A stretch of DNA of 63,247 bases, the filler included, from Dugesia japonica (lineage: Eukaryota): the NCBI GenBank assembly GCA_001938525.1. It is 6 parts of 6 records of this genome, joined end to end, with 100 filler letters (N's around TTAATTAATTAA, not from the genome) between each part and the next. Parts side by side here need not be neighbours in the genome. Positions count along the whole stretch, not along the records: positions 12,172 to 23,062 come from MQRL01590484.1; 5 more parts are not named here. One strand, written 5' to 3'. The notes beneath the pieces were generated by a model that worked only from the letters and a program-made list of their open reading frames with translations, searched no databases and was not told the DNA's origin. The position numbers and the translations under genes were made by a program. This document shows positions 14,913-15,440 of the stretch, one piece after another; the stretch's first letter is position 1; each line of letters starts with the position of its first letter.

Positions 14913-15440
14913 TTATTTTATTATTTCATTTACTTTTAATTTAATTTCTTTTTTAATTAAATTATTTCCTTGTGTATTAAATAAAAAGTTCCATAAATAA
15001 TCTCCAGTTATTGTCCAGATATCAATTTTATATTTAAATTGCTTTGGTTTATTATCTTTTAAACACCCATAAACTATTTGATAATCGGGATATAAAATTT
15101 TAAATTTGTGCAATTTTCGATAAACATTTTTATAGGAATCCCAACTATTTGTGAAAATGGAGTATTTTAGTTCTAAACCTAATTTTCTATTATCACATTT
15201 AAAGTTTATTCCTATTGGTTGTCTTTCGAAACCTAAATATCCAAATATTTCTTTATAAATTGAACCTATTCTTGTTTTAATATAAACTAATAATGAGTAA
15301 ATGTATTGATAATCTTCTGAATAACAACTAGTAAAGAAATCATAATGTTTTTTAGTTAAATAATAAGATTTTAAATAAACAACTATATTTTTATCTATAA
15401 TTTCTCTTATTTTAATTCTTAAATTGCTATCAATTTGCAT
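14913..15440 (-). CDS. Putative PD-(D/E)xK nuclease resembling Eco47II/Sau96I-type restriction endonucleases
   Basis: Intact 175-aa intronless ORF; RIGSIYKEIFG...GINF-x8-GLELK-x3-FTNS...YRKLHKFKILYPDYQIVYGC...ITGDYLWNFL. Recognised by motif pattern only. Confidence 0.55.
   Translation of the reverse strand: MQIDSNLRIKIREIIDKNIVVYLKSYYLTKKHYDFFTSCYSEDYQYIYSLLVYIKTRIGSIYKEIFGYLGFERQPIGINFKCDNRKLGLELKYSIFTNSWDSYKNVYRKLHKFKILYPDYQIVYGCLKDNKPKQFKYKIDIWTITGDYLWNFLFNTQGNNLIKKEIKLKVNEIIK

Follow-up and report, generated by a model that had tools for sequence, protein, structure and literature searches.

A relative of type II restriction endonucleases beside the polB gene of a decayed Polinton in the genome of Dugesia japonica

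Type II restriction enzymes occur in prokaryotes and in certain giant viruses that infect protists, and a protective methylase accompanies them in nearly all cases. A gene of this kind next to the DNA polymerase gene of a Polinton in Dugesia japonica, and apparently carried by other Polintons too, therefore raises the question of how a cutter of short sites, carried without an adjacent methylase by an element that integrates into animal genomes, would spare both itself and its host. The gene lies in a stretch of 63,247 nucleotides, filler included, which was analysed as a whole and is called the window below (assembly GCA_001938525.1; positions 12,172 to 23,062 come from MQRL01590484.1). On balance we favour the view that the locus is one copy, now decayed, of an animal Polinton present in many copies, and that the relative of type II restriction endonucleases adjoining its polB, though likely dead here, is likely a functional weapon for cutting DNA when the element is active. 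The features on which the argument rests are as follows.

14913..15440, minus strand: ORF of 175 aa, a relative of Eco47II/EcoO109I-type PD-(D/E)xK restriction endonucleases by homology, fold and conserved columns
14828..14912, minus strand: AT-rich spacer of 85 bp from the ORF stop to the polB start, multi-copy in the DNA runs
12740..14827, minus strand: protein-primed Polinton polB, represented by its 5' half without the polymerase core and interrupted by at least 8 stops and about 3 frame switches
14470..14810, minus strand: C2H2 zinc-finger-coding repeat with a 168-bp unit at the polB N-terminus (zf-C2H2_6, E 1.4e-7)
12893..12964, minus strand: EndoVII/HNH-like insert of polB with a DHDH...GAAH motif (weak Pfam match to Endonuclease_7, E 0.014, below cut-off)
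15441..15792, minus strand: multi-copy non-coding region 5' of the ORF (depth 200-540 in bins 15515-15804), presumably serving as a promoter or forming an inner terminal repeat
15793..15901, minus strand: very high-copy piece of about 110 bp at the element edge (depth 4250-5000), which may be the left terminus or else an independent short repeat
12173..12759, no strand assigned: unrelated very high-copy repeat that truncates polB (depth 27,000-73,000), followed by the N run 12072-12171

A preliminary description of this DNA had placed an intronless ORF of 175 aa about 85 bp upstream of a co-oriented polB. This arrangement is confirmed: the ORF runs from 15440 to 14913 on the minus strand, requires no intron and has the translation given before, and the polB ATG lies at 14827 in the same orientation, 85 bp beyond the ORF stop. 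Stop-free stretches of at least 175 aa were found in none of 1000 first-order Markov shuffles of the 4-kb region (maximum 166) and in none of 1000 second-order shuffles (maximum 172). Measured against such shuffles, a frame of 175 codons is not a product of chance at the local GC content of about 22%. The composition of the ORF fits the host (GC3 0.12). From the single RNA run, about 25% of which was read, 205 reads were placed, of which 152 were less than 90% alike and 190 fitted only partly; this run provided no usable evidence of ORF expression. The six loose ends at 14911 that resemble poly(A) lie in A-rich sequence and were not counted as signs of expression.

The adjoining polymerase gene was said to belong to a Polinton and to be broken by stops, and both statements hold. 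Residues 192-602 of P0002, a full-length pPolB of 1248 aa with a DNA_pol_B_2 domain and C2H2 fingers, match window positions 13996-12743 (tblastn E 2e-71). Five in-frame stops fall within this segment, and the N-terminal part of the gene contains at least three more together with about three frame switches. A protein-primed family B polymerase, one of the features of Polintons/Mavericks, is thus present as a 5' half. A search with the polB fragment found seven pPolB relatives, across which the DHDH...GAAH motif of the insert is invariant. The 3' half is lacking: at about 12.75 kb polB ends at a different, very high-copy repeat with a weak match to Retrotrans_gag (E 0.18), and the N run follows. 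Any genes for integrase, capsid, ATPase and protease would lie beyond this cut-off, and those at 44-47.5 kb are part of another element. Of the element next to the ORF, only about 3.1 kb is present.

At the other edge, the piece at 15793-15901 has loose ends at 15899-15901 with an agreement of 0.43-0.45, the flanks beyond 15901 are diverse, and single-copy depth resumes from 15950. Should this piece be the left terminus, the nuclease would come first among the genes of the element. The window holds no second copy of this candidate terminus, the fragment having one end only, and none of the vertebrate end motifs described in the available part of PMC8097293 was seen at about 15901. The piece matched no Rfam family above cut-off and its folding was not unusual (z 0.6). 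It also occurs in RNA reads, on both strands and with other flanks. Two GGNCC sites are present in the element fragment where 0.4 would be expected, so that these sites are not avoided. Both are located at 15712-15769, just upstream of the ORF; this is a weak observation, as the local GC content is higher.

The assignment of the ORF to a restriction endonuclease family could not be read directly from databases. The ORF protein (P0001) matched no Pfam family at E<=1, and direct searches gave nothing useful in PHROGs, NCBIfam, PADLOC, PDB sequences, phages, plasmids, IMG/VR or word-indexed proteins; a profile search of PDB sequences was equally uninformative. Matches to SopD2 in PDB sequences and NCBIfam (E 0.06 and 0.007) were far below cut-off and were dismissed as chance. 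Among 1.84 billion proteins, phmmer found 24 relatives at E<=1e-3, the best of which (E 4e-21) shared 36% identity along its entire length. RE_Eco47II (PF09553) was matched by 22 of these 24 at E<=0.1, and 12 of the 24 exceeded the curated cut-off. Because the ORF has no Pfam match of its own, though half of its relatives pass the cut-off, it is on sequence grounds a divergent relative of RE_Eco47II rather than a filed member. A profile built only from 42 relatives on viral contigs gave the ORF 38.4 bits, compared with at most 6.8 in 1000 shuffles, and the comparison of GVMAG-type enzymes with the ORF by hhalign reached 99.95% (E 2.6e-38). The giant-virus relative P0017 in turn matches plasmid genes annotated as 'Eco47II family restriction endonuclease' (3 records). 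The available text of PMC3424549 recognises Eco47II as a PD-(D/E)xK group and lists it as bacterial.

A structural model points in the same direction. The AlphaFold (AF2) model obtained from a 25-row alignment (pLDDT 88.8, pTM 0.80) is predicted to contain the PD-(D/E)xK alpha/beta core of helix, antiparallel strand pair, helix and strand. The three Foldseek matches at E<=1e-3 were all EcoO109I (TM 0.66-0.69), and other PD-(D/E)xK nucleases came next. VIA-align placed EcoO109I (PDB 1WTD/1WTE) first of 48,161 chains, with Z 11.4, an rmsd of 3.4 and 171 residues aligned; the second row was a helical match with Z 7.8, and McrC, Ecl18kI, BamHI and PspGI were among the lower structural matches. In other words, the fold of EcoO109I extends over nearly the whole chain (TM up to 0.69), although the ORF is shorter (175 vs 264 aa), and the layout of helix, acidic strand and ExK is common to the ORF and to RE_Eco47II/EcoO109I. 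What sets the ORF apart from these enzymes is its location in a Polinton of an animal genome, the lack of an adjacent methylase and the loss of the metal-binding acidic residue. The neighbours in the ESM Atlas were viral hypothetical proteins and clusters containing HinfI (22% of members) or RE_ApaLI, and the BFVD structure search gave no match at E<=1e-3. A single-sequence AlphaFold model (pLDDT 48) led to phage tail terminators with Z below 7 and was rejected as uninformative. Given the RE_Eco47II matches of the relatives and the structural match to EcoO109I, the earlier call of an Eco47II-type PD-(D/E)xK nuclease was right; the comparison with restriction endonuclease folds, proposed at the time as a check, did find such a fold, and neither of the outcomes that had been named as fatal to the idea was encountered.

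Where, then, do the relatives of this gene reside? One subgroup comprises 62 IMG/VR loci, some of them duplicates, of which 23 are labelled GVMAG. In 57 of the 62 a convergent ORF of at least 250 aa lies directly downstream, and every neighbour tested (44 of 44; 43 of the 57 convergent ORFs and one co-oriented) was a C5 methylase (PF00145). Judged from their sequences, these giant-virus-type loci are ordinary restriction-modification pairs, and the giant-virus link that had been proposed for the ORF is borne out. The subgroup nearest the ORF includes at least two metagenome contigs. L091, which is short, encodes a 174-aa relative with an intact motif; its neighbour, in a tail-to-tail arrangement, is a broken pPolB C-terminus (E 9e-24). 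On L092 the relative (RE_Eco47II, 34 bits) is near an ORF that is shared with the Polinton contig L002 (E 1e-6). The nuclease gene was absent, in the sequence present, from five more distant Polinton-type viral contigs with 27-33% pPolB identity. No viral contigs were found when subgroup A5 or the ORF next to the L092 relative served as query, and the genomic context is known for 2 of the 29 relatives outside the giant-virus group.

A quick, midpoint-rooted tree of 75 rows (117 before dereplication, with 42 near-duplicates dropped) united the methylase-linked enzymes in one clade of 43 rows (SH-aLRT 98). The ORF, with a long branch of 3.64, as well as L091, L092 and most other relatives, lay outside this clade at a poorly resolved base. 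The GVMAG-type pairs are thus of the same protein family as the ORF, but they have a convergent methylase and a clade of their own, whereas the ORF stands beside pPolB and outside that clade. Because the ORF is not nested among the giant-virus enzymes, the tree gives neither a donor nor a direction of transfer.

Some further observations were made on the relatives. A scan of prokaryote genomes found a single nuclease-methylase pair nested in the viral clade, on a 3.9-kb contig (L125) of a Muribaculaceae MAG, which is probably a mis-binned viral contig. A family member at L095:9833-10393, in a viral contig, has no adjacent methylase. In L007-L065 GGNCC occurs 473 times against 640 expected (CCNGG 618), but these loci are redundant and this crude hint was not used. 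Twelve of the 29 relatives outside the giant-virus group (P0019, P0028, P0032, P0050, P0053, P0055, P0057, P0058, P0059, P0062, P0063 and L092:906-1506) have a hydrophobic, signal-peptide-like N-terminus and keep the catalytic motif; in L092:906-1506 the hydrophobic N-terminus sits in a separate frame. From their sequences, these proteins are possibly secreted nucleases of the restriction fold.

The position of the gene invites the thought that it might spread by itself. A freestanding homing-type nuclease, moving with or beside pPolB among co-infecting Polintons and playing no part in defence, would suit the patchy occurrence of the gene among Polintons and its place directly next to pPolB in two of the three Polinton-type contexts (the window and L091). 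HNH or VSR nucleases are known, and often found, as inserts within Polinton pPolBs (10.1101/2023.08.22.554363; PMC11071308, as far as their text is available), and endonucleases near replicases have been proposed to mobilise them (10.64898/2026.10.13.758929, available part). We nevertheless find this explanation rather unlikely. The side and orientation of the gene with respect to pPolB vary, being upstream and co-oriented in the window but downstream and convergent in L091. Moreover, the modelled protein appears to be a compact type II restriction endonuclease core without extra DNA-binding arms, and the relatives are, by context, methylase-coupled cutters of short sites.

Conserved positions were scored against 74 dereplicated relatives. 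The ORF retains E90 (74 of 74 relatives) and K92 (73 of 74), but differs at five near-invariant positions: 63, where 71 of the 72 relatives with a letter have one residue class; 79, the metal-binding position, where it has Asn in place of the residue found in 73 of 74; 93 (73 of 74); 103 (72 of 74); and 128 (74 of 74). Position 99 was dropped as a departure because it varies among the relatives. The Asn that had been noticed at the site of the expected catalytic Asp is therefore real, being residue 79, and the catalytic motif, which consists of the acidic residue of PD and of ExK, is not intact although ExK is kept. Over the 25 columns conserved in the group outside the giant viruses the ORF matches 12, the lowest value of 30 rows. 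Since five near-invariant positions differ, the metal-binding one included, this copy is likely dead and has simply not yet acquired a stop codon.

Such a conclusion must be weighed against the fact that the ORF is unbroken next to a polB with about ten breaks. The preliminary description had suggested that the copy was 'inactive or DNA-binding only'. The first part of this suggestion stands, given the five positions; the second is less likely than plain decay, because the departures affect five conserved positions and polB is a pseudogene. In its strongest form the second part would mean that catalysis was lost long ago in the Polinton family of this host and that the protein persists as a regulator that binds DNA in a sequence-specific manner, or as a terminal-binding protein. 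In its favour, none of the five positions is found among the 40 best-supported of 821 differences to other copies. A contig of 368 nt (depth 42-87) covers codons 29-116 in a gapless alignment with 47 substitutions, as expected of a younger subfamily whose frame is conserved. It can be read in the same sense, as can the location of both GGNCC sites of the element upstream of the ORF. However, the break rate of polB (8-12 per 2045 bp) implies that a frame of 525 bp would remain unbroken by chance in 5-13% of cases. The metal-binding residue is kept in 28 of the 29 relatives outside the giant-virus group, and the departures of the ORF extend beyond the catalytic triad, in the way expected of scattered decay. 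We thus regard retention for DNA binding as unlikely and keep to the reading that this is a decayed copy of a once active nuclease gene.

If the active element cut DNA, one would look for a methylase. The complete element might have carried a full restriction-modification pair whose methylase is in the part missing here, which would make it a plain viral system in an unusual host. A methylase adjoins nearly all giant-virus relatives, and many Polinton-like viruses encode methylases, some of them near endonucleases (PMC7805220; 10.64898/2026.06.19.733378; available text). Yet in all three Polinton-type contexts other genes occupy the adjacent slot, and tblastn with four methylases of related loci (E<=1) detected no C5 methylase in the 63-kb window or in L091 and L092 (1.1 and 2.1 kb). 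This agrees, for the C5 type searched here, with the earlier remark that no methyltransferase was visible nearby. We consider a full pair very unlikely; its mechanism overlaps that of the favoured reading, from which it differs mainly in novelty.

The favoured reading also requires that the ORF was cargo of the Polinton, as had been claimed. Contigs from three DNA runs were placed at 80% likeness; summed depth is not equal to copy number. In all three runs depth was 354-1496 over the ORF and 127-928 over polB, compared with 9-18 in the flank from 15950, and in the spacer it was 192-326 at 14836 and 14850. ORF, spacer and polB are thus repeated to a similar degree, and the locus is an interspersed multi-copy repeat of the host genome with a summed depth tens of times that of the single-copy flank. 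As all three parts are multi-copy next to a single-copy flank, the ORF is likely an integral component of this element family. No piece bridging ORF and polB in another copy was present among the 24 listed of more than 10,000 contig pieces, and we infer the linkage in other copies from the continuous depth. That the two genes are neighbours by chance, by contamination or through a separate mobile piece, as this lack of a bridge and some joints bypassing the ORF (14664-15442, depth 17-70) might be taken to indicate, is most improbable: depth is unbroken over ORF, spacer and polB, the composition of the ORF is that of the host, the independent contig L091 also couples the gene with pPolB, and the bypassing joints lie in AT-rich low-complexity sequence, comparable listed joints having sides of 21 letters only.

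How might the active form of this decayed element have worked? Within the family, recognition is presumably of GGNCC-like sites by Eco47II and of RGGNCCY by EcoO109I. The working protein would be a Mg2+-dependent, homodimeric endonuclease acting on a short palindrome, probably a GGNCC-like one. Its expression would be early and driven from the element's left end; a position there, in front of polB, would accord with such timing. Its target could be co-infecting viral DNA or host DNA, by analogy with the enzymes of marseilleviruses and chloroviruses. According to the available text of PMC7253447, chlorovirus enzymes degrade host DNA, while those of marseilleviruses have been proposed to exclude co-infecting viruses, the nuclease being transcribed first. 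These restriction-modification systems are likewise cargo of eukaryotic DNA viruses, which makes the same role in conflict plausible for the ORF; the marseillevirus system treated in that paper targets GATC. Protection of the Polinton might come from a methylase encoded at another place in its genome, from the rarity of sites in AT-rich DNA, or from timing. The decay of this copy would have followed its integration, through point mutations that gave polB its stops and the short ORF missense changes only.

A bolder proposal, which we advance tentatively and with less conviction, is that animal Polintons possess their own methylase-free branch of type II restriction endonucleases, derived from the restriction-modification pool of bacteria and giant viruses and directed at unmethylated DNA of rival viruses or at host chromatin, with one sub-branch that is possibly secreted. 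If true, Polintons would be resident sequence-specific nucleases in animal germlines, and bacterial-style DNA warfare would extend to Polintons that infect animals. The immediate claim is limited, since the ORF copy is likely a fossil. The relatives nevertheless form a pool of compact restriction enzyme relatives of about 175 aa, and its natural members with intact motifs are open to direct assay.

Nucleases of other kinds have been described from this class of elements. Restriction-modification systems are predicted for some protist virophages and Polinton-like viruses (PMC7805220; PMC12220804; 10.64898/2026.06.19.733378; 10.64898/2026.10.13.758929; available parts). In these sources and those on pPolB inserts cited above, the known nucleases resemble the ORF in being cargo of Polinton-class elements near the polymerase, but they are pPolB inserts, virophage systems of type I/III or unspecified endonucleases of protist viruses. 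The words 'restriction' and 'endonuclease' are absent from the accessible text of papers on adintoviruses (PMC8502044) and vertebrate Mavericks (PMC8097293), and a coral study refers, with a supplementary figure, to 'exo- and endonucleases' that occur at low frequency (PMC11131425, available part). The available text of PMC8532177 and PMC2441816 contributes nothing decisive. In the accessible full-text literature, a coverage that leaves aside supplements, Repbase-type entries and subscription journals, we found no animal Polinton described as carrying an Eco47II-type gene.

The window contains several other features. A second, unrelated and decayed Polinton-like element extends over 41800-48000 on the plus strand, with N-terminal pieces of polB and an integrase (weak NCBIfam match); capsid-like and protease-like frames were recognised by eye, and it has no ORF of the nuclease family described here. 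A C-terminal pPolB fragment at 2756-3945 on the plus strand (tblastn E 1e-20, weak DNA_pol_B_2 match) is not part of the element of the ORF. At 4200-5650 on the minus strand, a segment of about 40% GC has several frames of 90-146 aa, two of which were scanned and had no Pfam match above cut-off. Remains of Gypsy-like retrotransposons were recognised by eye at about 1.5-2.1 kb and at 49.3-52 kb. Host exons, all on the minus strand, encode parts of a HECT E3 ligase (10126-11976), RPB4 (35494-35835), which scores 90-96 bits against one set of PDB entries, from animals, and 38-51 against the others, yeast among them, as fits an animal host, and a CTD small phosphatase-like protein (53067-53444).
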